DNA of 64,000 bases. Source: Hemiscyllium ocellatum. Its lineage: Eukaryota. Every line of letters starts with the position of its first letter. Positions within the stretch are counted from its first letter, which is position 1. Under the pieces are notes generated by a model. It ran no database searches and was not told where the DNA came from. It was given only the letters and a program-made list of their open reading frames with translations. Both the position numbers and the translations under genes were made by a program. The stretch is from NCBI RefSeq assembly GCF_020745735.1, contig NW_026869102.1, forward strand, positions 128,367-192,366, in the 5' to 3' direction. Shown here in pieces: positions 1 to 34,768 of this stretch.

Positions 1-3000
1 GATACAGTGAGGGAGATAGGAGAATAATTGAGGGGGAGATACAGTGAGGGAGATGGGAAGATTATTGAGGGGGAGATACAGTGAGGGAGATAGGAGGATT
101 ATTGAGGGGGAGATACAGTGAGGGAGATAGGAGAATAATTGAGGGGGAGATACAGTGAGGGAGATAGGAGGATTATTGAGGGGGAGATACAGTGAGGGAG
201 ATAGGAGGATTATTGAGGGGGAGATACAGTGAGGGAGATGGGAGGATTATTGAGGGGGAGATACAGTGAGAGAGATAGGAAGATTATTGAGGGGGAGATA
301 CAGTGAGGGAGATAGGAGGATAATTGAGGGGGAGATACAGATGGGGAGATAGGAGGATTACTGAGGGGGAGATACAGATGGGGAGATAGGAGGATTATTG
401 AGGGGGAGATACAGTGAGGGAGATGGGAGGATTATTGAGGGGGAGATACAGTGAGGGAGATGGGAGGATTATTGAGGGGGAGATACAGTGAGGGAGATAG
501 GAGAATAATTGAGGGGGAGATACAGTGAGGGAGATGGGAAGATTATTGAGGGGGAGATACAGTGAGGGAGATAGGAGGATTATTGAGGGGGAGATACAGT
601 GAGGGAGATAGGAGAATAATTGAGGGGGAGATACAGTGAGGGAGATAGGAGGATTATTGAGGGGGAGATACAGTGAGGGAGATAGGAGGATTATTGAGGG
701 GGAGATACAGTGAGGGAGATGGGAGGATTATTGAGGGGGAGATACAGTGAGAGAGATAGGAAGATTATTGAGGGGGAGATACAGTGAGGGAGATAGGAGG
801 ATAATTGAGGGGGAGATACAGATGGGGAGATAGGAGGATTATTGAGGGGGAGATACAGATGGGGAGATAGGAGGATTATTGAGGGGGAGATACAGTGAGG
901 GAGATGGGAGGATTATTGAGGGGGAGATACAGTGAGGGAGATGGGAGGATTATTGAGGGGGAGATACAGATGGGGAGATAGGAGGATTATTGAGGGGGAG
1001 ATACAGATGGGGAGATGGGAGGATTATTGAGGGGGAGATACAGTGAGAGAGATAGGAAGATTATTGAGGGGGAGATACAGTGAGGGAGATAGGAGGATTA
1101 TTGAGGGGGAGATACAGATGGGGAGATAGGAAGATTATTGAGGGGGAGATACAGTGAGGGAGATAGGAGGATTATTGAGGGGGAGATACAGATGGGGAGA
1201 TAGGAGGATTATTGAGGGGGAGATACAGTGAGGGAGATAGGAAGATTATTGAGGGGGAGATACAGTGAGGGAGATAGGAAGATTATTGAGGGGGAGATAC
1301 AGTGAGGGAGATAGGAGGATTATTGAGGGGGAGATACAGATGGGGAGATAGGAGGATTATTGAGGGGGAGATACAGTGAGGGCGATAGGAGGATTATTGA
1401 GGGGGAGATACAGTGAGGGAGATAGGAGGATAATTGAGGGGGAGATACAGATGGGGAGATAGGAGGATTATTGAGGGGGAGATACAGTGTGGGAGATAGG
1501 AGGATTATTGAGGGGGAGATACAGTGAGGGAGATAGGAGGATAATTGAGGGGGAGATACAGTGAGGGCGATAGGAGGATTATTGAGGGGGAGATACAGTG
1601 AGGGAGATGGGAGGATTATTGAGGGGGAGATACAGTGAGGGAGATAGGAGGATAATTGAGGGGGAGATACAGTGAGGGAGATAGGAGGATTATTGAGGGG
1701 GTGATACAGTGAGGGAGATAGGAGGATTATTGAGGGGGTGATACAGTGAGGGAGATGGGAGGATTATTGAGGGGGAGATACAGATTGGGAGATAGGAGGA
1801 TTATTGAGGGGGAGATACAGTGAGGGAGATAGGAGGATAATTGAGGGGGAGATACAGATGGGGAGATAGGAGGATTATTGAGGGGGAGATACAGATGGGG
1901 AGGTAAGAGGATTATTGAGGGGGAGATACAGTGAGGGAGATAGGAGGATAATTGAGGGGGAGATACAGATGGGGAGATAGGAGGATTATTGAGGGGGAGA
2001 TACAGTGAGGGAGATAGGAGGATAATTGAGGGGGAGATACAGTGAGGGAGATAGGAGGATTATTGAGGGGGAGATACAGTGAGGGAGATGGGAGGATTAT
2101 TGAGGGGGAGATACAGTGAGGGAGATAGGAGGATAATTGAGGGGGAGATACAGTGAGGGAGATAGGAGGATTATTGAGGGGGTGATACAGTGAGGGAGAT
2201 GGGAGGATTATTGAGGGGGAGATACAGATGGGGAGATAGGAGGATTATTGAGGGGGAGATACAGTGAGGGAGATAGGAGAATAATTGAGGGGGAGATACA
2301 GTGAGGGAGATAGGAGGATAATTGAGGGGGAGATACAGATGGGGGAGATGGGAGGATTATTGAGGGGGAGATACAGATGGGGGAGATGGGAGGATTATTG
2401 AGGGGGAGATACAGATGGGGAGATAGGAGGATTATTGAGGGGGAGATACAGTGAGGGAGATAGGAGGATTATTGAGGGGGAGATACAGATGGGGAGATGG
2501 GAGGATTATTGAGGGGGAGATACAGATGGGGAGGTAAGAGGATTATTGAGGGGGAGATACAGTGAGGGAGATAGGAGGATTATTGAGGGGGAGATACAGA
2601 TGGGGAGATAGGAGGATTATTGAGGGGGAGATAGGAGGATTATTGAGGGGGAGATACAGATGGAGAGGTAAGAGGATTATTGAGGGGGAGATACAGTGAG
2701 GGAGATAGGAGGATTATTGAGGGAGAGATACAGATGGGGAGGTAAGAGGATTATTGAGGGGGAGATACAGTGAGGGAGATAGGAGGATTATTGAGGGGGA
2801 GATACAGATGGGGAGATAGGAGGATTATTGAGGGGGAGATAGGAGGATTATTGAGGGGGAGATACAGTGAGGGAGATAGGAGGATAATTGAGGGGGAGAT
2901 ACAGATGGGGAGATGGGAGGATTATTGAGGGGGAGATACAGTGAGGGAGATAGGATTATTGAGGGGGAGATACAGATGGGGAGATAGGAGGATTATTGAG

Positions 3001-6000
3001 GGGGAGATACAGATGGGGAGATAGGAGGATTATTGAGGGGGAGATACAGTGAGGGAGATGGGAGGATTATTGAGGGGGAGATACAGTGAGGGAGATAGGA
3101 AGATTATTGAGGGGGAGATACAGTGAGGGAGATAGGAGGATAATTGAGGGGGAGATACAGATGGGGAGATAGGAGGATTATTGAGGGGGAGATACAGTGA
3201 GGGAGATAGGAGGATTATTTAGGGAGAGATACAGATGGGGAGATAGGAGGATTATTGAGGGGGAGATACAGTGGGGGAGATGGGAGGATTATTGAGGGGG
3301 AGATACAGATGGGGAGATAGGAAGATTATTGAGGGGGAGATACAGTGAGGGAGATAGGAGGATTATTGAGGGGGAGATACAGATGGGGAGATAGGAGGAT
3401 TATTGAGGGGGAGATACAGTGAGGGAGATAGGAGGATTATTGAGGGGGAGATACAGATGGGGAGATAGGAAGATTATTGAGGGGGAGATACAGTGAGGGA
3501 GATAGGAGGATTATTGAGGGGGAGATACAGATGGGGAGATAGGAGGATTATTGAGGGGGAGATACAGATGGGGAGATAGGAGGATTATTGAGGGGGAGAT
3601 ACAGATGGGGAGGTAAGAGGATTATTGAGGGGGAGATACAGTGAGGGAGATAGGAGGATTATTGAGGGGGAGATACAGATGGGGAGGTAAGAGGATTATT
3701 GAGGGGAAGATACAGTGAGGGAGATAGGAGGATTATTGAGGGGGAGATACAGATGGGGAGATAGGAGGATTATTGAGGGAGAGGTAGGAGGATTATTGAG
3801 GGGGAGATACAGTGAGGGAGATAGGAGGATTATTGAGGGGAAGATACAGTGAGGGAGATAGGAGGATAATTGAGGGGGAGATACAGATGGGGAGATGGGA
3901 GGATTATTGTGGGGGAGATACAGTGAGGGAGATAGGAGGATTATTGAGGGGGAGATACAGTGAGGGAGATAGGAGGATAATTGAGGGGGAGATACAGATG
4001 GGGAGATGGGAGGATTACTGAGGGGGAGATACCGATGGGGAGATGGGAGGATTATTGAGGGGGAGATACAGATGGGGAGATAGGAGGATTATTGAGGGGG
4101 AGATACAGATGGGGAGATAGGAGGATTATTGAGGGGGAGATACAGTGAGGGAGATAGGAGGATTATTGAGGGGGAGATACAGATGGGGAGATAGGAAGAT
4201 TATTGAGGGGGAGATACAGTGAGGGAGATAGGAGGATTATTGAGGGGGAGATACAGATGGGGAGATAGGAGGATTATTGAGGGGGAGATACAGTGAGGGA
4301 GATGGGAGGATTATTGAGGGGGAGATACAGTGAGGGAGATGGGAGGATTATTGAGGGAGAGATACAGATGGGGAGATAGGAAGATTATTGAGGGGGAGAT
4401 ACAGTGAGGGAGATAGGAGGATTATTGAGGGGGAGATACAGTGAGGGAGATAGGAGGATAATTGAGGGGGAGATACAGATGGGGGAGATGGGAGGATTAT
4501 TGAGGGGGAGATACAGATGGGGGAGATGGGAGGATTATTGAGGGGGAGATACAGATGGGGAGATAGGAGGATTATTGAGGGGGAGATACAGATGGGGAGA
4601 TAGGAGGATTATTGAGGGGGAGATACAGTGAGGGAGATAGGAGGATTATTGAGGGGGAGATACAGATGGGGAGATGGGAGGATTATTGAGGGGGAGATAC
4701 AGATGGGGAGGTAAGAGGATTATTGAGGGGGAGATACAGTGAGGGAGATAGGAGGATTATTGAGGGGGAGATACAGATGGGGAGATAGGAGGATTATTGA
4801 GGGGGAGATAGGAGGATTATTGAGGGGGAGATACAGATGGAGAGGTAAGAGGATTATTGAGGGGGAGATACAGTGAGGGAGATAGGAGGATTATTGAGGG
4901 AGAGATACAGATGGGGAGGTAAGAGGATTATTGAGGGGGAGATACAGTGAGGGAGATAGGAGGATTATTGAGGGGGAGATACAGATGGGGAGATAGGAGG
5001 ATTATTGAGGGGGAGATAGGAGGATTATTGAGGGGGAGATACAGTGAGGGAGATAGGAGGATAATTGAGGGGGAGATACAGATGGGGAGATGGGAGGATT
5101 ATTGAGGGGGAGATACAGTGAGGGAGATAGGATTATTGAGGGGGAGATACAGATGGGGAGATAGGAGGATTATTGAGGGGGAGATACAGATGGGGAGATA
5201 GGAGGATTATTGAGGGGGAGATACAGTGAGGGAGATGGGAGGATTATTGAGGGGGAGATACAGTGAGGGAGATAGGAAGATTATTGAGGGGGAGATACAG
5301 TGAGGGAGATAGGAGGATAATTGAGGGGGAGATACAGATGGGGAGATAGGAGGATTATTGAGGGGGAGATACAGTGAGGGAGATAGGAGGATTATTTAGG
5401 GAGAGATACAGATGGGGAGATAGGAGGATTATTGAGGGGGAGATACAGTGGGGGAGATGGGAGGATTATTGAGGGGGAGATACAGATGGGGAGATAGGAA
5501 GATTATTGAGGGGGAGATACAGTGAGGGAGATAGGAGGATTATTGAGGGGGAGATACAGATGGGGAGATAGGAGGATTATTGAGGGGGAGATACAGTGAG
5601 GGAGATAGGAGGATTATTGAGGGGGAGATACAGATGGGGAGATAGGAAGATTATTGAGGGGGAGATACAGTGAGGGAGATAGGAGGATTATTGAGGGGGA
5701 GATACAGATGGGGAGATAGGAGGATTATTGAGGGGGAGATACAGATGGGGAGATAGGAGGATTATTGAGGGGGAGATACAGATGGGGAGGTAAGAGGATT
5801 ATTGAGGGGGAGATACAGTGAGGGAGATAGGAGGATTATTGAGGGGGAGATACAGATGGGGAGGTAAGAGGATTATTGAGGGGGAGATACAGTGAGGGAG
5901 ATAGGAGGATTATTGAGGGGGAGATACAGATGGGGAGATAGGAGGATTATTGAGGGAGAGGTAGGAGGATTATTGAGGGGGAGATACAGTGAGGGAGATA

Positions 6001-9000
6001 GGAGGATTATTGAGGGGAAGATACAGTGAGGGAGATAGGAGGATAATTGAGGGGGAGATACAGATGGGGAGATGGGAGGATTATTGTGGGGGAGATACAG
6101 TGAGGGAGATAGGAGGATTATTGAGGGGGAGATACAGTGAGGGAGATAGGAGGATAATTGAGGGGGAGATACAGATGGGGAGATGGGAGGATTACTGAGG
6201 GGGAGATACCGATGGGGAGATGGGAGGATTATTGAGGGGGAGATACAGATGGGGAGATAGGAGGATTATTGAGGGGGAGATACAGATGGGGAGATAGGAG
6301 GATTATTGAGGGGGAGATACAGTGAGGGAGATAGGAGGATTATTGAGGGGGAGATACAGATGGGGAGATAGGAAGATTATTGAGGGGGAGATACAGTGAG
6401 GGAGATAGGAGGATTATTGAGGGGGAGATACAGATGGGGAGATAGGAGGATTATTGAGGGGGAGATACAGTGAGGGAGATGGGAGGATTATTGAGGGGGA
6501 GATACAGTGAGGGAGATGGGAGGATTATTGAGGGAGAGATACAGATGGGGAGATAGGAAGATTATTGAGGGGGAGATACAGTGAGGGAGATAGGAGGATT
6601 ATTGAGGGGGAGATACAGATGGGGAGATAGGAGGATTATTGAGGGGGAGATACAGTGAGGGAGATAGGAGGATTATTGAGGGGGAGATACAGATGGGGAG
6701 ATAGGAAGATTATTGAGGGGGAGATACAGTGAGGGAGATAGGAGGATTATTGAGGGGGAGATACAGATGGGGAGATAGGAGGATTATTGAGGGGGAGATA
6801 CAGATGGGGAGAGTTAGGAGGATTATTGAGGGGGAGATACAGATGAGGAGATAGGAGGATTATTGAGGGGGAGATACAGATGGGGAGATAGGAAGATTAT
6901 TGAGGGGGAGATACAGTGAGGGAGATAGGAGGATTATTGAGGGGGAGATACAGATGGGGAGATAGGAGGATTATTGAGGGGGAGATACAGTGAGGGAGAT
7001 AGGAGGATTATTGAGGGGGAGATACAGATGGGGAGATAGGAGGATTACTGAGGGGGAGATACAGTGGGGGAGATGGGAGGATTACTGAGGGGGAGATACC
7101 GATGGGGAGATGGGAGGATTATTGAGGGGGAGATACCGATGGGGAGATGGGAGGATTATTGAGGGGGAGATACAGTGTGGGAGATAGGAAGATTATTGAG
7201 GGGGAGATACAGTGAGGGAGATGGGAGGATTATTGAGGGGGAGATACAGATGGGGAGATAGGAAGATTATTGAGGGGGAGATACAGTGAGGGAGATAGGA
7301 GGATTATTGAGGGGGAGATACAGATGGGGAGATAGGAGGATTATTGAGGGGGAGATACAGTGAGGGAGATAGGAGGATTATTGAGGGGGAGATACAGATG
7401 GGGAGATAGGAGGATTATTGAGGGGGAGATACAGATGGGGAGATAGGAGGATTATTGAGGGGGAGATACAGATGGGGAGATAGGAGGATTATTGAGGGGG
7501 AGATACAGATGGGGAGATAGGAGGATTATTGAGGGGGAGATACAGATGGGGAGGTAAGAGGATTATTGAGGGGGAGATACAGTGAGGGAGATAGGAGGAT
7601 TATTGAGGGGGAGATACAGATGGGGAGATAGGAGGATTATTGAGGGGGAGATAGGAGGATTATTGAGGGGGAGATACAGATGGGGAGGTAAGAGGATTAT
7701 TGAGGGGGAGATACAGTGAGGGAGATAGGAGGATTATTGAGGGGGAGATACAGATGGGGAGGTAAGAGGATTATTGAGGGGGAGATACAGTGAGGGAGAT
7801 AGGAGGATTATTGAGGGGGAGATACAGATGGGGAGATAGGAGGATTATTGAGGGGGAGATACAGTGAGGGAGATAGGAGGATTATTGAGGGGAAGATACA
7901 GTGAGGGAGATAGGAGGATAATTGAGGGGGATTTTCAGATGAGATGGGAGGATTATTGAGCGGGAGATACAGTGAGGGAGATAGGAGGATTATTGAAGGG
8001 GAGATACAGTGAGGGAGATAGGAGGATAATCGAGGGGGAGATACAGATGGGGAGATGGGAGGATTACTGAGGGGGAGATACCGATGGGGAGATGGGAGGA
8101 TTATTGAGGGGGAGATACAGATGGGGAGATAGGAGGATTATTGAGGGGGAGATACAGTGAGGGAGATGGGAGGATTATTGAGGGGGAGATACAGATGGGG
8201 AGATAGGAAGATTATTGAGGGGGAGATACAGTGAGGGAGATAGGAGGATAATTGAGGGGGAGATACAGTGAGGGAGATAGGAGGATTATTGAGGGGGAGA
8301 TACAGATGGGGAGATAGGAAGATTATTGAGGGGGAGATACAGTGAGGGAGATAGGAGGATTATTGAGGGGGAGATACAGATGGGGAGATAGGAGGATTAT
8401 TGAGGGGGAGATACAGTGAGGGAGATAGGAGGATTATTGAGGGGGAGATACAGATGGGAGATAGGAGGATTATTGAGGGGGAGATACAGATGGGGAGATA
8501 GGAGGATTATTGAGGGGGAGATACAGATGGGGAGATAGGAGGATTATTGAGGGGGAGATACAGTGAGGGAGATAGGACGATTATTTAGGGAGAGATACAG
8601 ATGGGGAGATAGGAGGATTATTGAGGGAGAGATACAGATGGGGAGGTAAGAGGATTATTGAGGGGGAGATACAGTGGGGGAGATGGGAGGATTACTGAGG
8701 GGGAGATACAGATGGGGAGATAGGAGGATTATTGAGGGGGAGATACAGTGGGGAGATGGGAGGATTACTGAGGGGGAGATACCGATGGGGAGATGGGAGG
8801 ATTATTGAGTCGGAGATACCGATGGGGAGATAGGAGGATTATTGAGGGGGAGATACAGTGTGGGAGATAGGAAGATTATTGAGGGGGAGATACAGTGAGG
8901 GAGATGGGAGGATTATTGAGGGGGAGATACAGATGGGGAGATAGGAAGATTATTGAGGGGGAGATACAGTGAGGGAGATAGGAGGATTATTGAGGGGGAG

Positions 9001-12000
9001 ATACAGTGAGGGAGATAGGAGGATTATTGAGGGGGAGATACAGATGGGGAGATAGGAGGATTATTGAGGGGGAGATACAGTGAGGGAGATAGGAGGATTA
9101 TTGAGGGGGAGATACAGATGGGGAGATAGGAAGATTATTGAGGGGGAGATACAGTGGGGGAGATAGGAGGATTATTGAGGGGGAGATACAGTGGGGGAGA
9201 TAGGAGGATTATTGAGGGGGAGATACAGTGAGGGCGATAGGAGGATTATTGAGGGGAAGATACAGTGAGGGAGATAGGAGGATTATTGAGGGGGAGATAC
9301 CGTGAGGGAGATAGGAGGATTATTGAGGGGAAGATACAGTGAGGGAGATAGGAGGATTATTGAGGGGAAGATACAGTGAGAGAGATAGGAGGATTATTGA
9401 GGGGGAGATACAGTGAGGGAGATAGGAGGATTATTGAGGGGGGGATACAGATGGGCAGATAGGAGGATTATTGAGGGGAAGATACAGTGAGGGAGATAGG
9501 AGGATTATTGAGGGGGAGATACAGTGAGGGAGATAGGAGGATTATTGAGGGGGAGATACAGTGAGGGAGATAGGAGGATTATTGAGGGGGAGATACAGTG
9601 AGGGAGATAGGAGGATTATTGAGGGGAAGATACAGTGAGAGAGATAGGAGGATTATTGAGGGGGAGATACAGTGAGGGAGATAGGAGGATTATTGAGGGG
9701 GAGATACAGATGGGGAGATAAGAGGATTATTGAGGGGGAGATACAGATGGGGAGATAGGAGGATTATTGAGGGGGAGATACAGATGGGGAGATAGGAGGA
9801 TTATTGAGGGGGGGATACAGATGGGCAGATGGGAGGATTATTGAGGGGGAGATACAGATGGGGAGATGGGAGGATTATTGAGGGGGAGATACAGTGAGGG
9901 AGATAGGATAATTGAGGGGGAGATACAGTGAGGGAGATAGGAGGATTATTGAGGGGGAGATACAGATGGGGAGATAGGAAGATTATTGAGGGGGAGATAC
10001 AGTGGGGGAGATGGGAGGATTACTGAGGGGGAGATACCGATGGGGAGATGGGAGGATTATTGAGGGGGAGATACCAATGGGGAGATAGGAGGATTATTGA
10101 GGGGGAGATACAGTGAGGGAGATGGGAGGATTATTGAGGGGGAGATACAGATGGGGAGATAGGAAGATTATTGAGGGGAGATACAGTGAGGGAGATAGGA
10201 GGATTATTGAGGGGGAGATACAGATGGGGAGATAGGAGGATTATTGAGGGGGAGATACAGTGAGGGAGATAGGAGGATTATTGAGGGGGAGATACAGATG
10301 GGGAGATAGGAAGATTATTGAGGGGGAGATACAGTGAGGGAGATAGGAGGATTATTGAGGGGGAGATACAGATGGGGAGATAGGAGGATTATTGAGGGGG
10401 AGATACAGATGGGGAGATAGGAGGATTATTGAGGGGGAGATACAGATGGGGAGATAGGAGGATTATTGAGGGGGAGATACAGTGGGGGAGATAGGAGGAT
10501 TATTGAGGGGGAGATACAGTGAGGGCGATAGGAGGATTATTGAGGGGAAGATACAGTGAGGGAGATAGGAGGATTATTGAGGGGGAGATACCGTGAGGGA
10601 GATAGGAGGATTATTGAGGGGATGATACAGTGAGGGAGATAGGAGGATTATTGAGGGGAAGATACAGTGAGAGAGATAGGAGGATTATTGAGGGGAAGAT
10701 ACAGTGAGAGAGATAGGAGGATTATTGAGGGGGAGATACAGTGAGGGAGATAGGAGGATTATTGAGGGGGAGATACAGATGGGGGAGATAGGAGGATTAT
10801 TGAGGGGGAGATACAGATGGGGGAGATAGGAGGATTATTGAGGGGGAGATACAGATGGGGGAGATAGGAGGATTATTGAGGGGAAGATACAGTGAGAGAG
10901 ATAGGAGGATTACTGAGGGGGAGATACAGTGAGGGAGATGGGAGGATTATTGAGGGGGAGATGGGGAGATACAGATGGGGAGATTGGAGGTTTCTTGCAG
11001 GTGGAGATAGGGGAGATACAGATGCGGAGATACGAGGATTATTGAGGGGGAGATGGGAGGATTATTGAGGGGGAGATACAGTGAGGGAGATAGGAGGATT
11101 ATTGAGGGGGAGATACAGATGGGGAGATAGGAGGATTATTGAGGGGGAGATACAGATGGGGAGATAGGAGGATTATTGAGGGGGGGATACAGATGGGCAG
11201 ATGGGAGGATTATTGAGGGGGAGATACAGATGGGGAGATGGGAGGATTATTGAGGGGGAGATACAGTGAGGGAGACAGGAGGATAATTGAGGGGGAGATA
11301 CAGTGAGGGAGATAGGAGGATTATTGAGGGGCAGATACAGATGGGGAGATAGGAAGATTATTGAGGGGGAGATACAGTGGGGGAGATGGGAGGATTACTG
11401 AGGGGGAGATACCGATGGGGAGATGGGAGGATTATTGAGGGGGAGATGCCGATGGGGAGATAGGAGGATTATTGAGGGGGAGATACAGTGTGGGAGATAG
11501 GAAGATTATTGAGGGGGAGATACAGTGAGGGAGATGGGAGGATTATTGAGGGGGAGATACAGATGGGGAGATAGGAAGATTATTGAGGGGGAGATACAGT
11601 GAGGGAGATAGGAGGATTATTGAGGGGGAGATACAGATGGGGAGATAGGAGGATTATTGAGGGGGAGATACAGATGGGGAGATAGGAGGATTATTGAGGG
11701 GGAGATACAGTGGGGGAGATAGGAGGATTATTGAGGGGGAGATACAGTGAGGGCGATAGGAGGATTATTGAGGGGAAGGTACAGTGAGGGAGATAGGAGG
11801 ATTATTGAGGGGGAGATACCGTGAGGGAGATAGGAGGATTATTGAGGGGAAGATACAGTGAGGGAGATAGGAGGATTATTGAGGTGAAGATACAGTGAGA
11901 GAGATAGGAGGATTATTGAGGGGGAGATACAGTGAGGGAGATAGGAGGATTATTGAGGGGGAGATACAGATGGGGAGATGGGAGGATTATTGAGGGGGAG

Positions 12001-12300
12001 ATGGGGAGATACAGATGGGGAGATTGGAGGTTTCTTGCAGGTGGAGATAGGGGAGATACAGATGCGGAGATACGAGGATTATTGAGGGGGAGATGGGAGG
12101 ATTATTGAGGGGGAGATACAGTGAGGGAGATTGGATGATTATTGAGGGGGAGATACAGATGCGGAGATTGGATGATTATTGAGGGGGAGATACAGATGCG
12201 GAGATGGGAGGATTATTGAGGGGGAGATAGGAGGATTATTGAGGGGGAGATAGGAGGATTATTGAGGGGGAGATAGGAGGATTATTGAGGGGGTGATGGG
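1..12300. repeat. Satellite array A: 37-bp tandem unit GAGGGGGAGATACAGTGAGGGAGATAGGAGGATTATT, ~330 copies. Variant subunits include CAGATGGGG, ATGGGAGG, ATAGGAAG, ATAATTG, ATTACTG and TACCGATGGGG. Higher-order repeats of ~2.14 kb, with ~1.05-1.7 kb blocks in the distal part.
   Basis: Direct reading: unit repeats head-to-tail across the whole interval. Lines 2341-2400 and 4481-4540 are identical; the identical 69-aa artefact ORFs at 3812 and 5989 are offset by 2177 bp. Marker variants ATTACTG/TACCGATG recur near 7080, 8760, 10020 and 11400. No cytosine on the + strand for most of the array. Confidence 0.95.
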
Positions 12301-20460: not shown

Positions 20461-20599
20461 GATATAGAGAGAACACAGTGAGAGAGATACAGAGGGGAAA
20501 TACAAAGTGGGAGATGCTGAGGTGGAGAATAAAGAGGGGAGATAGGGAGAATACGGAGGGGTAGATGGGGGAATACCGCGGGGAGATAGAGGGAATGCT

Positions 20600-21190
20600 T
20601 TAACAACACAGAGGTGGAACGATAGGAAGGTGTCGAGCTCCTGGGAGGGGGGTCATCCACAACGAGCTTTCTCGGTCTCTTCACGCGGCGGACGCTCTGG
20701 TCACAAAGACCCAGCAACGTCCATCCCCGCCCCTCCCCTCCACCCCACCCCCTCCCTCCCTCGGGCAGCTGAGGAAATTTGGCGTGACCCTCGCTAACTA
20801 TGAGAGGGTGTGCGGCCGAGAGGGCTCGGTCTGGGGCGTTACCGCTATCCGGCACGGTCACTGCACCATTCCAGATCAGAGACGGTGACAGGGAGGGTGG
20901 GGGGACGCGGCCTGGACAATCACAAAGGACAACCTCCCGTCTCCAGGCTCCGTCTCCCAGGCCCCACTGACCAGGAAAGGCCCCCAGCGTTCTCAAAGAC
21001 CCACCCCACCCTGGGGATGTTTCTGTACCACCTCTCCCCTCCTGTTGTTAGAATACCGAATGGTCTCACAAACCCCTAACATTGGCCTGTCCCTGTGGTT
21101 TTGTTTGTGCTGCTGTCTCCCTATTATTTATCTCAGTGACCTGTCTGTATCGCTCACAAGGCAAACCTTTTCACTGCGTCGCGGGACAAT
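20600..21190. other. ~600-bp unique, non-repetitive island between satellite arrays B and C. Moderately CpG-containing (cgagctc, cacgcggcggacgctc, tgcggccgagagggctcgg, ggcgttaccgctatccggcacgg) and ends in AATAAA at ~21187-21192.
   Basis: No tandem periodicity; base composition differs sharply from flanks. No convincing ORF: the minus-strand ORF 12789..20996 merely reads into it from the satellite. Confidence 0.5.
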
Positions 21191-21199
21191 AAACCCAAT

Positions 21200-24100
21200 T
21201 CAATACAACACAGAGGGGCAGGCGCGGGGGGCAGATACACAGAGGGGCAGGGGCAGATACAGGGGGGCAGGCGCAGAGGGTACAGATACACAGGAGCAGA
21301 TACAGAGGGGCAGAGGCAGGGGGGCAGAGGCAGAGGGGCAGATACAGAGGGGCAGATACACAGGAGCAGACACAGAGGGGCAGATACACAGAGGGGCAGA
21401 TACACAGAGGGGCAGATACACAGGAGCAGATACAGAGGGGCAGACACACAGAGGGGCAGACACACAGAGGGGCAGATACAGAGGGGCAGACCCAGAGGGG
21501 CAGATACACAGGAGCAGATACAGAGGGGCAGACACAGAGGGGCAGACACAGAGGGGCAGATACACAGAGGGGCAGATACACAGAGGGGCAGATACAGAGG
21601 GGCAGACACACAGAGGGGCAGACACACAGAGGGGCAGATACAGAGGGGCAGACCCAGAGGGGCAGACCCAGAGGGGCAGATACACAGGAGCAGATACAGA
21701 GGGGCAGACACACAGAGGGGCAGACACACAGAGGGGCAGACCCAGAGGGGCAGATACACAGGAGCAGATACAGAGGGGCAGACACACAGAGGGGCAGACC
21801 CAGAGGGGCAGACACAGAGGGGCAGATACAGAGAGGGGCAGATACACAGAGGGGCAGACACACAGAGGGGCAGACACACAGAGGGGGGCAGACACAGAGG
21901 GGGGCAGACACACAGAGGGGCAGACACACAGAGGGGGGCAGACACACAGAGGGGCAGACCCAGAGGGGCAGACCCAGAGGGGCAGATACAGAGAGGGGCA
22001 GATACAGAGAGGGGCAGACACACAGAGGGGCAGACACACAGAGGGGCAGATACAGAGAGGGGCAGACACACAGAGGGGCAGATACAGAGGGGCAGATACA
22101 GAGGGGCAGATACAGAGAGGGGCAGACACAGAGGGGCAGACACAGAGGGGCAGATACAGAGAGGGGCAGACACACAGAGGGGCAGATACACAGAGGGGCA
22201 GATACACAGAGGGGCAGACACACAGAGGGGCAGACACACAGAGGGGGGCAGACACAGAGGGGGGCAGACACACAGAGGGGCAGACACACAGAGGGGGGCA
22301 GACACACAGAGGGGCAGACCCAGAGGGGCAGACACAGAGGGGCAGACACACAGAGGGGCAGACACACAGAGGGGCAGACACACAGAGGGGCAGATACAGA
22401 GAGGGGCAGACACACAGAGGGGCAGATACAGAGGGGCAGATACAGAGAGGGGCAGACACACAGAGGGGCAGACCCAGAGAGGGGCAGATACAGAGAGGGG
22501 CAGACACACAGAGGGGCAGACACAGAGGGGCAGACCCAGAGAGGGGCAGACACAGAGGGGCAGATACAGAGGGGCAGACACACAGAGGGGCAGACCCAGA
22601 GAGGGGCAGACACAGAGGGGCAGACACACAGAGGGGCAGATACAGAGAGGGGCAGATACAGAGAGGGGCAGACACACAGAGGGGCAGACACACAGAGGGG
22701 CAGATACAGAGAGGGGCAGATACAGAGAGGGGCAGACACACAGAGGGGCAGATACAGAGAGGGGCAGATACAGAGAGGGGCAGATACAGAGAGGGGCAGA
22801 CACACAGAGGGGCAGATACAGAGAGGGGCAGACACACAGAGGGGCAGACACACAGAGGGGCAGATACAGAGGGGCAGACACAGAGAGGGGCAGATACAGA
22901 GAGGGGCAGATACAGAGAGGGGCAGACACACAGAGGGGCAGACACACAGAGGGGCAGACACAGAGAGGGGCAGACACAGAGAGGGGCAGATACAGAGAGG
23001 GGCAGACACACAGAGGGGCAGACACACAGAGGGGCAGATACAGAGGGGCAGACCCAGAGGGGCAGATACACAGGAGCAGATACAGAGGGGCAGACACAGA
23101 GGGGCAGACACAGAGGGGCAGATACACAGAGGGGCAGATACACAGAGGGGCAGATACACAGAGGGGCAGATACAGAGGGGCAGACACACAGAGGGGCAGA
23201 CACACAGAGGGGCAGATACAGAGGGGCAGACCCAGAGGGGCAGATACACAGGAGCAGATACAGAGGGGCAGACACACAGAGGGGCAGACACACAGAGGGG
23301 CAGACCCAGAGGGGCAGATACACAGGAGCAGATACAGAGGGGCAGACACACAGAGGGGCAGACCCAGAGGGGCAGACACAGAGGGGCAGATACAGAGAGG
23401 GGCAGACACACAGAGGGGCAGACACACAGAGGGGCAGACACAGAGGGGCAGATACACAGAGGGGCAGATACACAGAGGGGCAGACACACAGAGGGGCAGA
23501 CACACAGAGGGGGGCAGACACAGAGGGGGGCAGACACACAGAGGGGGGCAGACACACAGAGGGGGGCAGACACACAGAGGGGCAGACCCAGAGGGGCAGA
23601 CACAGAGGGGCAGATACAGAGAGGGGCAGACACACAGAGGGGCAGACCCAGAGAGGGGCAGATACAGAGAGGGGCTGACACACAGAGGGGCAGACACAGA
23701 GGGGCAGACCCAGAGGGGCAGACCCAGAGAGGGGCAGACACAGAGGGGCAGATACAGAGGGGCAGACACACAGAGGGGCAGACACAGAGGGGCAGACACA
23801 CAGAGGGGCAGATACAGAGAGGGGCAGATACAGAGAGGGGCAGACACACAGAGGGGCAGACACACAGAGGGGCAGATACAGAGAGGGGCAGATACAGAGA
23901 GGGGCAGACACACAGAGGGGCAGATACAGAGAGGGGCAGATACAGAGAGGGGCAGACACACAGAGGGGCAGATACAGAGAGGGGCAGATACAGAGAGGGG
24001 CAGACACACAGAGGGGCAGACACACAGAGGGGCAGATACAGAGGGGCAGACACAGAGAGGGGCAGATACAGAGAGGGGCAGATACAGAGAGGGGCAGACA

Positions 24101-27100
24101 CACAGAGGGGCAGACACACAGAGGGGCAGACACACAGAGGGGCAGACACACAGAGGGGCAGACACACAGAGGGGCAGATACAGAGAGGGGCAGACACACA
24201 GAGGGGCAGACACACAGAGGGGCAGACACAGAGAGGGGCAGACACACAGAGGGGCAGACACACAGAGGGGCAGATACAGAGGGGCAGACACAGAGAGGGG
24301 CAGATACAGAGAGGGGCAGATACAGAGAGGGGCAGACACACAGAGGGGCAGACACACAGAGGGGCAGACACACAGAGGGGCAGACACACAGAGGGGCAGA
24401 CACAGAGAGGGGCAGATACAGAGAGGGGCAGACACACAGAGGGGGGCAGACACACAGAGGGGCAGACCCAGAGGGGCAGACACAGAGGGGCAGACACACA
24501 GAGGGGCAGACACACAGAGGGGCAGACACACAGAGGGGCAGACACACAGAGGGGCAGATACAGAGAGGGGCAGACACACAGAGGGGCAGATACAGAGGGG
24601 CAGATACAGAGAGGGGCAGACACACAGAGGGGCAGACCCAGAGAGGGGCAGATACAGAGAGGGGCAGACACACAGAGGGGCAGACACAGAGGGGCAGACC
24701 CAGAGAGGGGCAGACACAGAGGGGCAGATACAGAGGGGCAGACACACAGAGGGGCAGACCCAGAGAGGGGCAGACACAGAGGGGCAGACACACAGAGGGG
24801 CAGATACAGAGAGGGGCAGATACAGAGAGGGGCAGACACACAGAGGGGCAGACACACAGAGGGGCAGATACAGAGAGGGGCAGATACAGAGAGGGGCAGA
24901 CACACAGAGGGGCAGATACAGAGAGGGGCAGATACAGAGAGGGGCAGATACAGAGAGGGGCAGACACACAGAGGGGCAGATACAGAGAGGGGCAGACACA
25001 CAGAGGGGCAGACACACAGAGGGGCAGATACAGAGGGGCAGACACAGAGAGGGGCAGATACAGAGAGGGGCAGATACAGAGAGGGGCAGACACACAGAGG
25101 GGCAGACACACAGAGGGGCAGACACAGAGGGGCAGACACAGAGAGGGGCAGACACAGAGAGGGGCAGATACAGAGAGGGGCAGACACACAGAGGGGCAGA
25201 CACACAGAGGGGCAGATACAGAGGGGCAGACCCAGAGGGGCAGATACACAGGAGCAGATACAGAGGGGCAGACACAGAGGGGCAGACACAGAGGGGCAGA
25301 TACACAGAGGGGCAGATACACAGAGGGGCAGATACACAGAGGGGCAGATACAGAGGGGCAGACACACAGAGGGGCAGACACACAGAGGGGCAGATACAGA
25401 GGGGCAGACCCAGAGGGGCAGATACACAGGAGCAGATACAGAGGGGCAGACACACAGAGGGGCAGACACACAGAGGGGCAGACCCAGAGGGGCAGATACA
25501 CAGGAGCAGATACAGAGGGGCAGACACACAGAGGGGCAGACCCAGAGGGGCAGACACAGAGGGGCAGATACAGAGAGGGGCAGACACACAGAGGGGCAGA
25601 CACACAGAGGGGCAGACACAGAGGGGCAGATACACAGAGGGGCAGATACACAGAGGGGCAGATACACAGAGGGGCAGACACACAGAGGGGCAGACACACA
25701 GAGGGGGGCAGACACAGAGGGGGGCAGACACACAGAGGGGCAGACACACAGAGGGGGGCAGACACACAGAGGGGCAGACCCAGAGGGGCAGACACAGAGG
25801 GGCAGATACAGAGAGGGGCAGACACACAGAGGGGCAGACCCAGAGAGGGGCAGATACAGACAGGGGCTGACACACAGAGGGGCAGACACAGAGGGGCAGA
25901 CCCAGAGGGGCAGACCCAGAGAGGGGCAGACACAGAGGGGCAGATACAGAGGGGCAGACACACAGAGGGGCAGACACAGAGGGGCAGACACACAGAGGGG
26001 CAGATACAGAGAGGGGCAGATACAGAGAGGGGCAGACACACAGAGGGGCAGACACACAGAGGGGCAGATACAGAGAGGGGCAGATACAGAGAGGGGCAGA
26101 CACACAGAGGGGCAGATACAGAGAGGGGCAGATACAGAGAGGGGCAGACACACAGAGGGGCAGATACAGAGAGGGGCAGATACAGAGAGGGGCAGACACA
26201 CAGAGGGGCAGACACACAGAGGGGCAGATACAGAGGGGCAGACACAGAGAGGGGCAGATACAGAGAGGGGCAGATACAGAGAGGGGCAGACACACAGAGG
26301 GGCAGACACACAGAGGGGCAGACACACAGAGGGGCAGACACACAGAGGGGCAGACACAGAGAGGGGCAGATACAGAGAGGGGCAGACACACAGAGGGGCA
26401 GACACACAGAGGGGCAGACACAGAGAGGGGCAGACACACAGAGGGGCAGACACAGAGGGGCAGACACAGAGGGGCAGACACAGAGAGGGGCAGACACAGA
26501 GAGGGGCAGACACAGAGAGGGGCAGACACACAGAGGGGCAGATACAGAGAGGGGCAGACACAGAGAGGGGCAGACACACAGAGGGGCAGATACAGAGAGG
26601 GGCAGACACAGAGAGGGGCAGACACAGAGAGGGGCAGACACAGAGAGGGGCAGACACAGAGGGGCAGACACAGAGGGGCAGATACAGAGAGGAGCAGACA
26701 CAGAGGGGCAGACACAGAGGGGCAGATACAGAGGGGCAGATACAGAGGGGCAGACACAGAGGGGCAGATACAGAGAGGGGCAGATACAGAGAGGGGCAGA
26801 CACACAGAGGGGCAGACACACAGAGGGGCAGACACAGAGGGGCAGACACAGAGGGGCAGACACACAGAGGGGCAGACACACAGAGGGGCAGACACACAGA
26901 GGGGCAGATACAGAGAGGGGCAGACACACAGAGGGGCAGACACACAGAGGGGCAGACACAGAGGGGCAGACACAGAGGGGCAGATACAGAGAGGGGCAGA
27001 TACAGAGAGGGGCAGATACAGAGAGGGGCAGACACACAGAGGGGGGCAGATACAGAGAGGGGCAGACACAGAGGGGCAGACACAGAGGGGCAGATACAGA

Positions 27101-27838
27101 GAGGAGCAGACACAGAGGGGCAGACACAGAGGGGCAGATACAGAGAGGAGCAGACACAGAGGGGCAGACACACAGAGGGGCAGACACAGAGGGGCAGACA
27201 CAGAGGGACAGATACAGAGAGGGGCAGATACAGAGAGGGGCAGACACACAGAGGGGCAGACACACAGAGGGGCAGACACAGAGGGGCAGACACAGAGGGG
27301 CAGACACACAGAGGGGCAGACACACAGAGGGGCAGATACAGAGAGGGGCAGACACACAGAGGGGCAGACACAGAGGGGCAGACACAGAGGGGCAGACACA
27401 GAGAGGGGCAGATACAGAGAGGGGCAGATACAGAGAGGGGCAGATACAGAGAGGGGCAGACACACAGAGGGGCAGACACAGAGGGGCAGACACAGAGAGG
27501 GGCAGATACAGAGAGGGGCAGATACAGAGAGGGGCAGATACAGAGAGGGGCAGACACACAGAGGGGCAGACACAGAGGGGCAGACACAGAGAGGGGCAGA
27601 TACAGAGAGGGGCAGATACAGAGAGGGGCAGACACAGAGAGGGGCAGATACAGAGAGGGGCAGACACAGAGAGGGGCAGATACAGAGAGGGGCAGATACA
27701 GAGAGGGGCAGACACACAGAGGGGCAGATACAGAGAGGGGCAGATACAGAGAGGGGCAGATACAGAGAGGGGCAGACACAGAGAGGGGCAGATACAGAGA
27801 GGGGCAGACACACAGAGGGGCAGACACAGAGGGGCAGA
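21200..27838. repeat. Minisatellite array C: 16-bp unit CAGAGGGGCAGAYACA with 18-bp variants (CAGAGAGGGGCAGACACA, CAGAGGGGCAGACACACA), ~390 copies. Local sub-periodic motifs (e.g. CAGGAGCAGATACAGAGGGGCAGAC) mark higher-order blocks.
   Basis: Direct reading; the + strand is essentially T-free over 6.6 kb. Near-identical stretches recur, e.g. 21430-21800 vs 23040-23400 and 25200-25560. Confidence 0.95.
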
Positions 27839-27934
27839 TAGTGGAATACAGAAGGGGAGAGACGGGCAGAAAGGGAGAACATGGAGGGGGAGATGGGGAT
27901 GATGGAGGAATCCTGTGGGGGAGGCACAGGGGAA

Positions 27935-28205
27935 TACTGAGGGGGAGATGGGGGGGAAATACTGAGGGGGAGATGGGAAATACTGAGGGGGAGATGGGGG
28001 AAATAGTGAGGGGGAGATGGGGGAAATAGTGAGGGAGAGATGGGGAATACTGAGGGGGAGATGGGGGGAATACTGAGGGAGAGATGGGGAATACTGAGGG
28101 GGAGATGGGGGAAATACTGAGGGGGAGATGGGGGAAATACTGAGGGAGAGATGGGGAATACTGAGGGGGAGATGGGGAAATACTGAGGGGGAGATGGGGG
28201 AAATA
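27935..28205. repeat. Minisatellite D: ~23-bp unit TACTGAGGGGGAGATGGGGGAAA, ~11 copies.
   Basis: Direct reading; shares the GAGGGGGAGAT core with arrays A and B. Confidence 0.9.
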
Positions 28206-28400
28206 ATGCAGAAGTGGAGGAGGCTGGTACAACTGCAACATTTAAGGGGCGTTTGGGTGGGTATAGGAATAGGAAGGGTTTGGAGGGATAGAGGCCGGGG
28301 GCTGGCAGGTGGGAATGGATTGGGTTGGGATAACTGGGTCAGCACGGACGGGTTGGACCGAAGGGTCTGTTTCCGTGCTGTACATCTCTATGACTCGATG
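28205..28400 (+). mobile_element. 3'-terminal fragment of a CR1-like LINE: ORF2 C-terminal remnant (WRRLVQLQHLRG-type) plus 3' UTR tail ...GGCAGGTGGGAATGGATTGGGTTGGGATAACTGGGTCAGCACGGACGGGTTGGACCGAAGGGTCTGTTTCCGTGCTGTACATCTCTATGA.
   Basis: The same tail recurs at 38830-39075, 40140-40262, 41410-41590 and 47150-47390, adjacent to RT-bearing fragments. Confidence 0.75.
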
Positions 28401-28565
28401 GGCTGAATGGCCTGTGTGTGTGTGAGAGAGACCAGCAGGCAATGGGATGGGCTGAATGGCCTATGTGTGTGAGAGAGAGAGACCAGCAGGCAATGGGATG
28501 GGCTGAATGGCCTATGTGTGTGAGAGAGAGAGACCAGCAGGCAATGGGATGGGCTGAATGGCCAC
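28400..28565. repeat. Tandem triplication of a 51-bp unit GGGCTGAATGGCCTATGTGTGTGAGAGAGAGAGACCAGCAGGCAATGGGAT, derived from the LINE 3' end.
   Basis: Three consecutive near-identical copies; a single-copy homologue follows the LINE tail at 41521-41585. Confidence 0.85.
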
Positions 28566-28919: not shown

Positions 28920-29640
28920 GGGGGGGGGGGGGGATTAGTGTCACAGGGAGAGGGAGAGTGGGACAGGCACACAGGGAGGATCAGTGTCACAGGGAGAGGG
29001 AGAGGGAGAGGGAGAGGGTTACAGGGACACAGAGTGAGAGAGTGAGAGAGTGAGAGAGAGAGAGAGAGAGGGGGACAGGGGTCTGTACACAGGGAGTGAG
29101 TGAGTGAGTGAGTGAGTGAGTGAGTGAGTGAGTGAGTGAGTGAGTGAGTGAGAGAGAGGGACAGGGGTCTGTACACAGGGAGTGAGAGAGAGAGAGAGAG
29201 AGGGACAGGGGTCTGTACACAGGGAGTGAGAGAGAGAGAGAGAGAGGGACAGGGGTCTGTACACAGGGAGTGAGAGAGAGAGAGAGAGAGGGACAGGGGT
29301 CTGTACACAGGGAGTGAGAGAGAGAGAGAGAGGGACAGGGGTCTGTACACAGGGAGTGAGAGAGAGAGAGGGACAGGGGTCTGTACACAGGGAGTGAGAG
29401 AGAGAGAGGGACAGGGGTCTGTACACAGGGAGTGAGAGAGAGAGAGAGGGACAGGGGTCTGTACACAGGGAGTGAGAGAGAGAGAGGGACAGGGGTCTGT
29501 ACACAGGGAGTGAGAGAGAGAGAGGGACAGGGGTCTGTACACAGGGAGTGAGAGAGAGAGAGGGACAGGGGTCTGTACACAGGGAGTGAGAGAGAGAGAG
29601 GGACAGGGGTCTGTACACAGGGAGTGAGTGAGAGGGTCAG
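28920..29640. repeat. Compound minisatellite ~350-1070 bp upstream of the CDIPT ATG: GGGAGAGGGAGAG blocks, then (GTGA)14 at ~29094-29150, then ~12 copies of a 37-45-bp unit GGGACAGGGGTCTGTACACAGGGAGTGAGAGAGAGAG with variable (GA)n.
   Basis: Direct reading; unit starts at about 29158, 29203, 29246, 29291, 29330, 29369, 29408, 29450, 29487, 29524, 29561 and 29598. Confidence 0.9.
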
Positions 29641-29993: not shown

Positions 29994-30030
29994 ATGGTCA
30001 GCGTTTTCCTGTTCGTGCCGAACCTCATTG
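29994..30030 (+). CDS. CDIPT: CDIPT exon 1 (MVSVFLFVPNLIG, phase-1 end); donor GTCAGT at 30031.
   Basis: Matches human CDIPT N-terminus (MPDENIFLFVPNLIGYARIV...). ATG preceded by an in-frame stop; GT donor. Confidence 0.8.
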
Positions 30031-34345: not shown

Positions 34346-34348
34346 TAG

Positions 34349-34765: not shown

Positions 34766-34768
<3 letters not shown>

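Follow-up and report, generated by a model that had tools for sequence, protein, structure and literature searches.

Three kinds of described tandem repeat come closest to the locus reported here. Satellitome-type families, characterized in the grasshopper and in characid fish, comprise variants that descend from one ancestor under concerted evolution and library dynamics, and they form megabase heterochromatic blocks on different chromosomes (PMC7093836, PMC8822648, PMC5557728). The human minisatellite CEB1 is G-rich, with a 39-nt unit that contains 23 G and 7 C, and is destabilized through G-quadruplexes (G4s) (PMC2673046). Primate alpha satellite, with monomers of ~171 nt, is organized in higher-order repeats. 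Shark satellites, by comparison, are hardly described: we found no satellite description in the genome paper of Hemiscyllium ocellatum (PMC10587355), the family described below was absent from the shark satellite and H. ocellatum genome papers searched, and its kernel motif, GAGGGG(G)AGATACA, did not appear in a relevant context in that literature. In the window analyzed, a 64,000-nt stretch of H. ocellatum contig NW_026869102.1, positions 1–28205 very probably constitute a compound tandem-repeat locus formed by a single G-rich repeat family.

Layout of the repeat complex upstream of CDIPT

Four family arrays fill ~28 kb upstream of CDIPT in H. ocellatum (Table 1); the spliced CDIPT product is an exact match to XP_060679280.1. 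Tandem Repeats Finder (TRF) reported head-to-tail copies of 37 nt (×324), 37 nt (×197), 16 nt (×421), and 23 nt (×13), in agreement with the spacing histograms. The first-pass annotation had assigned all arrays the same strand polarity, and this holds: the G-rich strand is the plus strand in A, B, C, and D alike, every kernel match within the arrays lies on that strand, and GC skew is positive over all of 1–30000 (0.75–0.89 in A and B, 0.31–0.46 in C). The purine fraction is 0.77–0.83 in the repeat region versus 0.545 in the remaining window, and the GC content of the family is 49–61%.

Table 1. Features of the repeat complex and its gene-proximal flank (positions within the window).
Feature	Positions	Strand	Units and character	Evidence
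Array A core	1–11916	+	37-nt units, ~320	TRF (87% matches), monomer spacing and types, block duplication
Array A 3′ transition zone	11917–12365	+		TRF rows 11917–12252, 11972–12117, and 12200–12365; identity profile
Spacer 1	12366–13238	+	Degenerate family units	TRF, kernel enrichment, autocorrelation
Array B	13239–20499	+	37-nt units, ~196; 7.3 kb	TRF (95% matches), monomer types, edge profile
Spacer 2	20500–20602	+	Degenerate D-like 22-nt units at 20524–20596	TRF, kernel enrichment
Non-repetitive island	20603–21216		590 nt with a 12-nt direct repeat on both sides; outside the family	
Array C	21217–27838	+	16/14-nt units; 6.5 kb	TRF (16-nt call at 21331–27838), unit lengths, alignment
C–D junction	27839–27894	+	Short, irregular, G/A-rich; zero kernel matches	Direct sequence reading
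Array D	27895–28205	+	21–25-nt units, ~13; 0.3 kb	TRF (23-nt), shuffle z, alignment
LINE 3′ fragment	28212–28456	+	Non-family; gene-proximal limit of the satellite complex	blastn
CDIPT-proximal 38–44-nt minisatellite	29054–29634	+	Non-family; CDIPT ATG at 29994	

Array A extends over at least 12 kb and continues past the left edge of the window. Its two main subtypes are A1, GAGGGGGAGATACAGTGAGGGAGATAGGAGGATTATT, and A2, which contains ACAGATGGGGAGAT; occasional 23-nt units are visible as 60-nt (37 + 23) spacings. A 2.05-kb tandem block at 2389–4441 recurs at 4566–6618 (lag 2177), the two copies differing at a single position in 2053 nt, and a second block duplication was detected at a lag of 481. 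In the 3′ transition zone, variants of 37, 23, 45, and 97 nt are mixed and identity to the A consensus drops from 0.91 to 0.71 and then to 0.37. Array B, with the unit GTGGGGGAGATACAAAGGGGAAGAGAGGGGGAATACT, has sharp edges at which the identity profile passes from 0.34 to 0.98, and it contains one local block duplication of 553 nt, or 15 units (lag 553). Array C begins with ~110 nt of irregular 20-nt variants, consists of CAGAGGGGCAGAYA(CA) units, and includes three tandem blocks of ~2.17–2.19 kb (lags 2164, 2178, and 2192). Array D, with the unit GAGGGGGAGATGGGGGAAATACT, adjoins a 5′-truncated LINE fragment.

These data bear out the 37-bp length of A and B with a shared core, for which TRF returned a 37-nt period twice, and the 23-bp length of D. 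Two further statements of the first-pass annotation required revision. A unit of 16/18 bp had been given for array C; 16 nt was recovered, the other main length is 14 nt, and 18 nt is a minor form. The shared core GGGGGAGATACA had been given for array B, which is indeed a 37-nt array, with the exact core in only 91 of its ~196 units.

The two spacers carry degenerate family sequence, as had been suggested. Between 12301 and 13035, five kernel matches were observed versus 0.33 expected, and none of 500 shuffles reached the observed count, as was also the case for 20460–20600 in and around spacer 2. Autocorrelation of spacer 1 gave weak peaks at 12, 35, and 37 nt. Spacer 1 also holds a small, young 34-nt array at 13036–13167 (3.9 copies, 98% matches) and, immediately before array B, 22–23-nt units of the D type at 13147–13211; D-like units thus occur in three places, there, at 20524–20596, and at 27895–28205. 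The arrays had been described as sharply separated by short diverged spacers and a unique island of ~600 nt. The edges of B are sharp, the spacers are decayed family sequence, and the island is unique within the window, absent from the Chiloscyllium locus sequence L001, and free of kernel matches. It is flanked by an exact 12-nt direct repeat, ACAACACAGAGG, at 20603–20614 and 21205–21216, the sole two copies in the window. The 590-nt island is therefore probably a later insertion with a target-site duplication, rather than an original separator.

Relatedness of the units within and between species

Aligned without gaps in one circular register, the consensus units of A and B agree at 28 of the 37 positions; none of 20000 shuffles reached 28, and the best matched at 26. 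Pairwise z-scores, computed against dinucleotide-preserving shuffles of the consensus units, were 8.6 for A–B, 5.6 for A–D, and 4.5 for B–D, and the 14-nt unit of array C (C14) scored 4.5 against A, 5.2 against B, and 5.8 against D. When C and D were compared with the 14-nt and 23-nt modules of the 37-mer, z ranged from 4.2 to 5.8 overall. Negative controls from the same window (E38, G43, K55, L74, and H51), of which E38, L74, and G43 are themselves purine-rich, scored at chance. The shuffle tests place the shared core far above chance (z 4.5–8.6).

The MAFFT alignment resolves the 37-mer into two modules, the first of 14 nt, GAGGGGGAGATACA, and the second of 23 nt, composed of GAGGGGGAGAT and GGGGGAATACT. 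A1, A2, B, the Chiloscyllium punctatum 36-mer, and the 34-nt unit of spacer 1 can be aligned end to end with no more than 1–3 gap columns; C falls on the first 14 columns and D on the last 23. The unit of array C differs from the 14-nt module by a G-to-C change at one position. Read from this alignment, the full 37-mer is present in A and B in two diverged forms, array C is the 14/16-nt module amplified by itself, and array D, the units at array borders, and the scattered short units of A are the 23-nt module by itself. The data are compatible with both directions of change, that is, with either the 23-mer or the 37-mer as the ancestral form. Circular autocorrelation of the consensus units gave no significance for an internal 11–14-nt sub-repeat relative to dinucleotide shuffles; the alignment nevertheless suggests that a primordial sub-repeat of that length may underlie the 37-mer.

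Monomer identity is 0.945–0.960 within arrays (A 0.945, B 0.960) and 0.686–0.756 between arrays. The arrays descend from one ancestral motif, and each was homogenized separately on a uniform polarity, as the first-pass annotation had proposed. Array autocorrelation declines monotonically with lag, without a regular higher-order period and with local blocks of only 2–3 copies, and a regular higher-order repeat was accordingly rejected.

The orthologous locus of C. punctatum provides a comparison of one locus in two species, with ~7 kb of the Chiloscyllium array seen. There, the same LINE fragment and CDIPT are preceded by a 36-nt family array of at least 7 kb, with 0.9 kb of other sequence between the array and the LINE. 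The LINE fragment is orthologous to L001 8440–8681 (blastn, 89.8% identity), and the unique flanks, LINE fragment, and CDIPT are collinear in the two genera, with flank identity of 85–90%. No contig on record was found to encode exactly the CDIPT product of H. ocellatum. The Chiloscyllium unit scored z of 4.8–6.5 against A, A2, D, C14, and the 34-nt unit J34 (6.1 against D), and its 25-nt core, at 3 mismatches, matched 115 A2-type units, with 117 cross-species 25-mer matches observed, versus 0.01 expected. The sister genus carries a different homogenized variant at the orthologous site. Since the family occupies this site in a 36-nt version, a length of 36/37 nt is a matter of inheritance and not of "preference": the ~37-bp periodicity goes back to one unit by shared descent, and the arrays did not converge on a length.

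The minisatellite nearest to CDIPT, which stops 360 nt before the CDIPT ATG, had been counted with the family at a unit length of 37–45 bp. It is purine-rich, as described, but the family link failed: by dinucleotide shuffles it resembled neither the units of A, B, C, and D (z −0.1 to −0.8) nor the Chiloscyllium 36-mer (z −0.3), and it contains zero kernel matches. On these grounds it was rejected as a family member, and the family consequently ends at 28205 and not at 29640. Its unit comprises a 27-nt core, GGGACAGGGGTCTGTACACAGGGAGTG, and a variable (GA)n run, and its length comes near 37 nt, as that of no other non-family array does, because GA microsatellite is added to that core. The Chiloscyllium orthologue has a 28-nt unit.

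Alternative explanations and proposed evolution

Raw similarity is inflated by the purine-rich composition and the G runs of all the arrays (a typical shuffle of A against B still matches at ~19/37), so the arrays could in principle be unrelated GA-rich low-complexity repeats that share the GGGGGAGATACA core by chance. The probability of this is practically nil and the reading was refuted: units are collinear over their full length, purine-rich controls remain at chance level, and the A–B match, z-scores, Chiloscyllium unit, and cross-species 25-mer all exceed what composition yields. Just as little credit can be given to the arrays coding for repetitive proteins. Minus-strand ORFs of 2257–2735 aa do span arrays B and C. 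All three minus-strand frames are open, however, simply for want of stop trinucleotides in the units, and with units of 37, 16, and 14 nt the reading frame changes from one unit to the next. The translation is of low complexity, and a search of 5.8 billion protein clusters with that of array B, which could also have revealed related arrays miscalled as genes in other assemblies, gave no hits. Frame shifts, stop-free units, and the missing homologue effectively refute the coding reading. An artefact of collapsed, expanded, or chimeric long-read contigs, affecting either the arrays as such or their size and internal structure, is a more serious concern and still very improbable. Trio-binned, noisy long reads underlie the reference assembly (PMC10587355), which makes the exact copy numbers, homopolymer-length variants, and near-perfect 2-kb duplications provisional; CDIPT sits on a 430-kb minor scaffold; and the single mismatch across the duplicated block of A, together with blocks of nearly equal length (~2.17 kb) in C, is an odd coincidence. 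Against this, an independent assembly of another genus places an array of this family, at least 7 kb long, at the corresponding position, both species keep the unique flanks, LINE fragment, and CDIPT in collinear order, and the order of variant units is structured and non-random.

An origin from a transposable element, either a LINE 3′ tail or the shark SINE-like element with GGGGTTAGATACAGAG, is unlikely and would concern only how the family was seeded, which is compatible with the explanation that we favor. Array D directly adjoins the LINE fragment, and a SINE-like motif, GGGGTTAGATACAGAG, at 39096 resembles C units, with weak z of 3.0–3.4 for C14 and C48. A, B, D, and the 36-mer of Chiloscyllium do not resemble that element (z −0.4 to 1.6), the array lies on the truncated 5′ side of the LINE and not at its 3′ tail, and array and LINE are 0.9 kb apart in Chiloscyllium. 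The SINE-like element, matched weakly and by C units alone, is an unlikely source. No Rfam families, tRNAs, or tRNA-derived SINEs were found.

Retention of the G-rich arrays through non-B DNA, with G-quadruplexes or R-loops acting as a recombination hotspot, replication barrier, or chromatin boundary upstream of CDIPT, is quite improbable. It draws on the strong G/C strand asymmetry, mean G4Hunter scores of 1.2–1.6 for A, B, D, and the Chiloscyllium array, the persistence of the array at one site in two genera, and the precedent of CEB1. The predicted G4 folding of B was equalled by 9 of 100 shuffles and that of D by 2 of 100. Array A, the largest, is nevertheless predicted to lack G4s (0 kcal/mol versus −12.7 for shuffles; ViennaRNA), the Chiloscyllium array folds worse than its shuffles (−11.9 versus −29.2; ViennaRNA G4 model), and no array of the window contains a canonical G4 motif with loops of ≤7 nt. 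Only B and D are predicted to exceed shuffles, and G4 formation was rejected as a family-wide property. Minimum free energies of 0 to −0.2 kcal/mol for A–D gave no Watson-Crick structure, whether hairpin or cruciform. The units, at 69–76% identity, evolve faster than the unique flanks at 85–90%, which indicates turnover rather than constraint. We regard as very unlikely, too, that the complex is kept at this site upstream of CDIPT across hemiscylliid sharks for an activity of its own, for instance as a strand-asymmetric recombination or replication hotspot or a chromatin boundary that depends on G-run density and not on the precise sequence; if it were, the unit might turn over while the array persists, and the ~2.17-kb blocks in two arrays would mark a physical spacing rule for unequal exchange. 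Most likely, the family is DNA without sequence-specific function, although a function could also explain why two genera have kept a G-rich array at this site.

The best reading is a compound minisatellite/satellite locus evolving through slippage and unequal exchange. Replication slippage between internal GAGGGGGAGAT direct repeats would add or remove the 14-nt module, so that arrays grow, shrink, and homogenize, and unequal exchange between sister chromatids or homologues, together with gene conversion, would give rise to the duplicated blocks and to concerted evolution. The degenerate borders may represent material that escaped homogenization, and an older D-like array of 22–23-nt units might have been the birthplace of B and C and the site that received the 590-nt insertion.

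Significance and comparison with known systems

The locus is an ordinary case of satellite DNA evolution and leaves knowledge of tandem-repeat evolution unchanged. Within 28 kb it displays an ancestral unit, modules amplified apart, decayed borders, recent kilobase-scale exchange products, and a datable insertion, and the sister-genus orthologue supplies a comparison for the evolution of a satellite family. Since shark satellites are hardly described and the motif is unreported in the papers searched, the units could be of use for annotation and as markers in FISH or population work.

With CEB1 and CEB25 (PMC2673046, PMC3486850), the shark arrays share units in the 20–50-nt range, a strong bias of G versus C between strands, kilobase-sized arrays with internal unit variation, and, in B and D, a G-run spacing compatible with G4s. 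They differ in a GC content of 49–61% versus 72% in CEB1, in their greater length than CEB1, and in the predicted lack of G4 propensity of array A and the Chiloscyllium array. Multi-monomer blocks in tandem (2.2 kb in A and C; 481–553 nt in A and B) recall the higher-order repeats of alpha satellite and are a signature of unequal exchange; unlike alpha satellite, the locus has local blocks of 2–3 copies in place of a regular higher-order period, and monomers of 14–37 nt. Unlike satellitome families, its variants lie adjacent to one another in a 28-kb, euchromatic-looking locus beside a housekeeping gene, and units of 14–37 nt in arrays of 0.3–12 kb are of minisatellite scale. Like those families, it combines variants from one ancestor, 94–96% identity within arrays versus 69–76% between them, and decayed borders, and a related species, C. 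punctatum, amplifies a different variant, as in the library model of Fry and Salser.

Layout, relatedness, and modular structure of the arrays

Tandem Repeats Finder called four large arrays, A to D, within positions 1–28205 (table below). From anchor to anchor, unit spacing was 37 nt in 270/307 intervals of array A, where 60-nt (37 + 23) intervals recur, and in 142/183 intervals of array B. The intervals in array C were 16 nt (n = 101), 14 nt (n = 88), and 18 nt (n = 10); the 16-bp unit assigned to it in the first-pass annotation is thus retained, with 14 nt replacing 18 nt as the second form. The same annotation proposed one strand polarity for all arrays, which is borne out by matches to the GAGGGG(G)AGATACA kernel, found inside arrays exclusively on the + strand, and by a strongly positive GC skew across 1–28205 (0.75–0.89 in A and B; 0.31–0.46 in C). 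Purine content is 77–83% in the arrays versus 54.5% in the rest of the window.

Features of the window
Feature	Positions	Strand	Description
Array A	1–~12000	+	37-nt units, 87% matches; starts mid-unit at window edge
Array B	13239–20499	+	37-nt units, 95% matches
Island	20603–21216		590 nt, non-repetitive, unique in window
Array C	21331–27838	+	16-nt unit
Array D	27895–28205	+	23-nt unit
LINE 3′ end copies	28212–28563, 38725–39102, 41365–41589		...GGTCTGTTTCCGTGCTGTACATCTCTATGA...
CDIPT-proximal minisatellite	29054–29634		38–44-nt unit
CDIPT	29994–44503	+	complete, six exons (tblastn); ATG at 29994
CDIPT coding exon starts	~29994, 34347, 35267, 36741, 39440, 44333	+	
Intronic 16-nt repeat	38486–38615		×8.1, 100% match, TCTCTCTCTCTCTGTC
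Arrays mirrored in Chiloscyllium punctatum	35555–64000		intronic 43-nt G-rich (34 nt in Chiloscyllium), 55-nt, 31-nt, 74-nt, 51-nt satellite
31-nt array	50002–51149		GGGGAGACACACTGACTCTCCCCGGGGTACA

The consensus units of A and B are identical at 28/37 positions, ungapped and in one circular register, while 20000 composition-preserving shuffles gave a mean of 19.2 (standard deviation 1.4) and a maximum of 26. Under a stricter null, with local alignment of doubled units scored against 1000 circular, dinucleotide-preserving shuffles of both units, the z-scores were 8.6 for A–B, 5.6 for A–D, 4.5 for B–D, 5.6 for the 23-nt variant of A against D, and 4.5, 5.2, and 5.8 for the 14-nt C unit against A, B, and D, respectively; the observed score was reached by 1/1000 shuffles for C against A and by 0/1000 for every other pair. 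Real arrays elsewhere in the window were used as negative controls. Scores against the family were at chance level (z −1.0 to 1.5) for the 38-nt array at 29054 and for four arrays to its right (43, 55, 74, and 51 nt), and the 31-nt array at 50002 was marginal (z of about 3 with A and the 16-nt C unit). The shared core suggested earlier therefore exceeds the expectation for random GA-rich sequence, and the degenerate spacers carry the kernel as claimed, with 5 matches in 12301–13035 (0.33 expected) and 2–3 in 20460–20600 (0.04 expected), counts attained by 0/500 shuffles in each case.

Alignment of the consensus units by MAFFT placed the two main 37-nt subtypes of A (A1 and A2), the B unit, two Chiloscyllium 36-mers, and the 34-nt unit of the A–B spacer collinearly over 37 columns, with one gap column needed for the 36-mers and three for the 34-mer. 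The C units occupy columns 1–14/16 (GAGGGGCAGAYACA), and columns 15–37 (GAGGGGGAGAT + GGGGGAATACT) correspond to D, the 23-nt variant of A, and the 22-nt unit of the second spacer, so that 37 = 14 + 23. In this alignment, arrays A and B carry the complete unit, array C only module 1, and array D only module 2. Since GAGGGGGAGAT starts both modules of the 37-mer, slippage between these direct repeats, adding or removing 14 nt, would be a simple route between 37-nt and 23-nt units; lone 23-nt units are scattered within array A. An internal sub-repeat of the 37-mer was not significant in a global circular autocorrelation test. The occurrence of D-like 22–23-nt units at three sites (13147–13211, directly left of B; 20524–20596, in the second spacer; and array D) points to an older D-like array within which B, C, and the island may have arisen.

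Homogenization of the arrays and the Chiloscyllium orthologue

The Chiloscyllium punctatum CDIPT locus (L001) was taken from GCA_047496795.1, giving a comparison of one locus in two species. Upstream of CDIPT, at least 7 kb of it is a G-rich array of 36-nt units (AGATGGGAGAATATAGAGGGGGAGGTACTGAGGGGG) that continues past the locus end; this array is followed by unique sequence with a LINE 3′ fragment, a 28-nt array, and CDIPT exon 1. The LINE fragment is common to both species (window 28212–28456, L001 8440–8681; 89.8% identity), and the 28-nt array is the orthologue of the 38-nt array at 29054. Against the family, the 36-mer gave z-scores of 4.8 (A), 5.5 (A2), 6.1 (D), 6.5 (34-nt unit), 5.5 (14-nt C unit), and 2.9 (B), and against unrelated arrays it scored at chance level. 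At 3 mismatches, its 25-nt core found 115 A2-type units in array A, every one on the + strand, versus 0.01 expected. The 36-mer is, by sequence comparison, a family member and lies upstream of CDIPT in the second genus as well, which indicates that both genera inherited the family, the place it occupies, and a unit of 36/37 nt from before they diverged.

Averaged over randomly paired monomers, identity was 94.5% within A, 96.0% within B, and 94.5% within the Chiloscyllium array, versus 73.2% for A–B, 75.6% for A–Chiloscyllium, and 68.6% for B–Chiloscyllium, in accord with the proposal that the arrays were homogenized separately. Between species the repeat units retain 69–76% identity versus ~85–90% for the surrounding unique DNA, as expected for turnover by concerted evolution. 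The array boundary also differs, with ~1.4 kb between array and LINE breakpoint in Chiloscyllium that is missing in Hemiscyllium.

The first-pass description of sharply separated blocks holds for B, whose edges rise from 0.34 to 0.98 in consensus score within one 370-nt step; A fades over its final ~1.5 kb through 23-, 45-, and 97-nt variants. A regular higher-order repeat was ruled out because autocorrelation declines monotonically with lag. As assembled, positions 2389–4441 of array A recur at 4566–6618 (lag 2177) with 1 mismatch in 2053 nt, and array C contains three tandem blocks (22332–26400) with lags of 2164, 2178, and 2192; further local duplications have lags of 553 in B and 481 in A. 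Such local tandem block duplications are the expected product of unequal exchange. Arrays A and C, with different unit lengths, have nearly the same block size of ~2.17 kb, which might be due to chance, to a rule of physical spacing, or to an error of assembly.

Sequences outside the family

The CDIPT-proximal minisatellite ends 360 nt upstream of the CDIPT start codon. It is promoter-proximal and purine-rich as first annotated, yet unrelated to A–D and to the Chiloscyllium 36-mer. Each of its units combines a 27-nt core with a (GA)n run of varying length, and the Chiloscyllium orthologue of the array has a 28-nt unit without the GA run; the near-37-nt length is thus accidental. The island, also confirmed as unique, was not found in L001. 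An exact 12-nt direct repeat (ACAACACAGAGG) brackets it (20603, 21205), these being the sole two copies in the window, and a shared word of that length arose in about 0.8% of control trials; AATAAA lies near its 3′ end. A later insertion into the array, with the 12-nt repeat as putative target-site duplication, is the simplest interpretation, and the inserted sequence looks like a retroposed copy or a transposable element.

CDIPT exons were found by tblastn with a CDIPT protein and spliced by hand. The 219-aa product matches XP_060679280.1 (Hemiscyllium ocellatum CDIPT, on a 430-kb contig) exactly, which identifies the window as epaulette-shark DNA; the top hit of a homology search was Chiloscyllium punctatum CDIPT at 93% identity. 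LINE reverse-transcriptase fragments occupy much of the CDIPT introns, and the intronic 16-nt repeat is a pyrimidine-strand repeat, with a strand composition opposite to that of the upstream arrays. A 51-nt ×3.3 tandem repeat starts at the 3′ terminus of the LINE copy adjoining array D. The mirrored arrays lie at 14678–34808 of L001. Among them, the 51-nt satellite spans at least 11 kb and continues past the right window edge; the two genera have 55-nt consensus units that are one base apart, closer than the intron DNA around them; and the 31-nt unit contains an inverted repeat (GGGGAGA...TCTCCCC) with a predicted fold of −17.1 kcal/mol, no better than its own shuffles.

Maintenance of the family and comparison with known systems

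The arrays matched no Rfam family and contained no tRNA-like sequence, and the G-rich strand had no predicted Watson–Crick structure (minimum free energy 0 to −0.2 kcal/mol). Minus-strand ORFs of 2257–2735 aa, open in all three frames, span B and C (12643–20996 and 21154–28345). A protein-coding reading was rejected: they lack homologues and are open only because the repeat units have no stop triplets. They are artefacts of the repeats that automated gene prediction could mistake for genes.

G-quadruplex (G4) formation could in principle maintain the family. G4Hunter means are 1.17 (A), 1.42 (B), 0.95 (C), 1.64 (D), and 1.43 (Chiloscyllium), and the ViennaRNA G4 model with DNA parameters predicted energies of −33.4 kcal/mol for B and −56.1 for D, both better than most shuffles. 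No G4 motif with loops ≤7 nt was found in any window array, no G4 was predicted for array A, whose shuffles average −12.7 kcal/mol, and the Chiloscyllium array (−11.9) was worse than its shuffles (−29.2). Since neither the largest array nor the one at the orthologous site shows a G4 advantage in these predictions, the family is probably not maintained by G4, and a G-run-dependent role is a minority possibility. The lack of any product signal together with the uneven G4 potential favors neutral tandem-repeat dynamics, which we consider the likely explanation; array turnover would then be driven by slippage, unequal exchange, and gene conversion.

The Hemiscyllium ocellatum assembly rests on trio-binned long reads, and its genome paper contains no description of satellites (PMC10587355). 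The family motif was not found in the searchable literature, to which it is new; the phenomenon itself is familiar. In size and composition the closer parallel is with G-rich minisatellites, among them human CEB1, whose 39-nt unit has 23 G and 7 C (PMC2673046), but the G4 capacity that defines CEB1 is, by prediction, not common to the whole shark family. In behavior the family is a textbook case of satellite DNA under concerted evolution and, on the evidence of this single locus in two species, is in line with the library model (PMC7093836, PMC8822648, PMC5557728).
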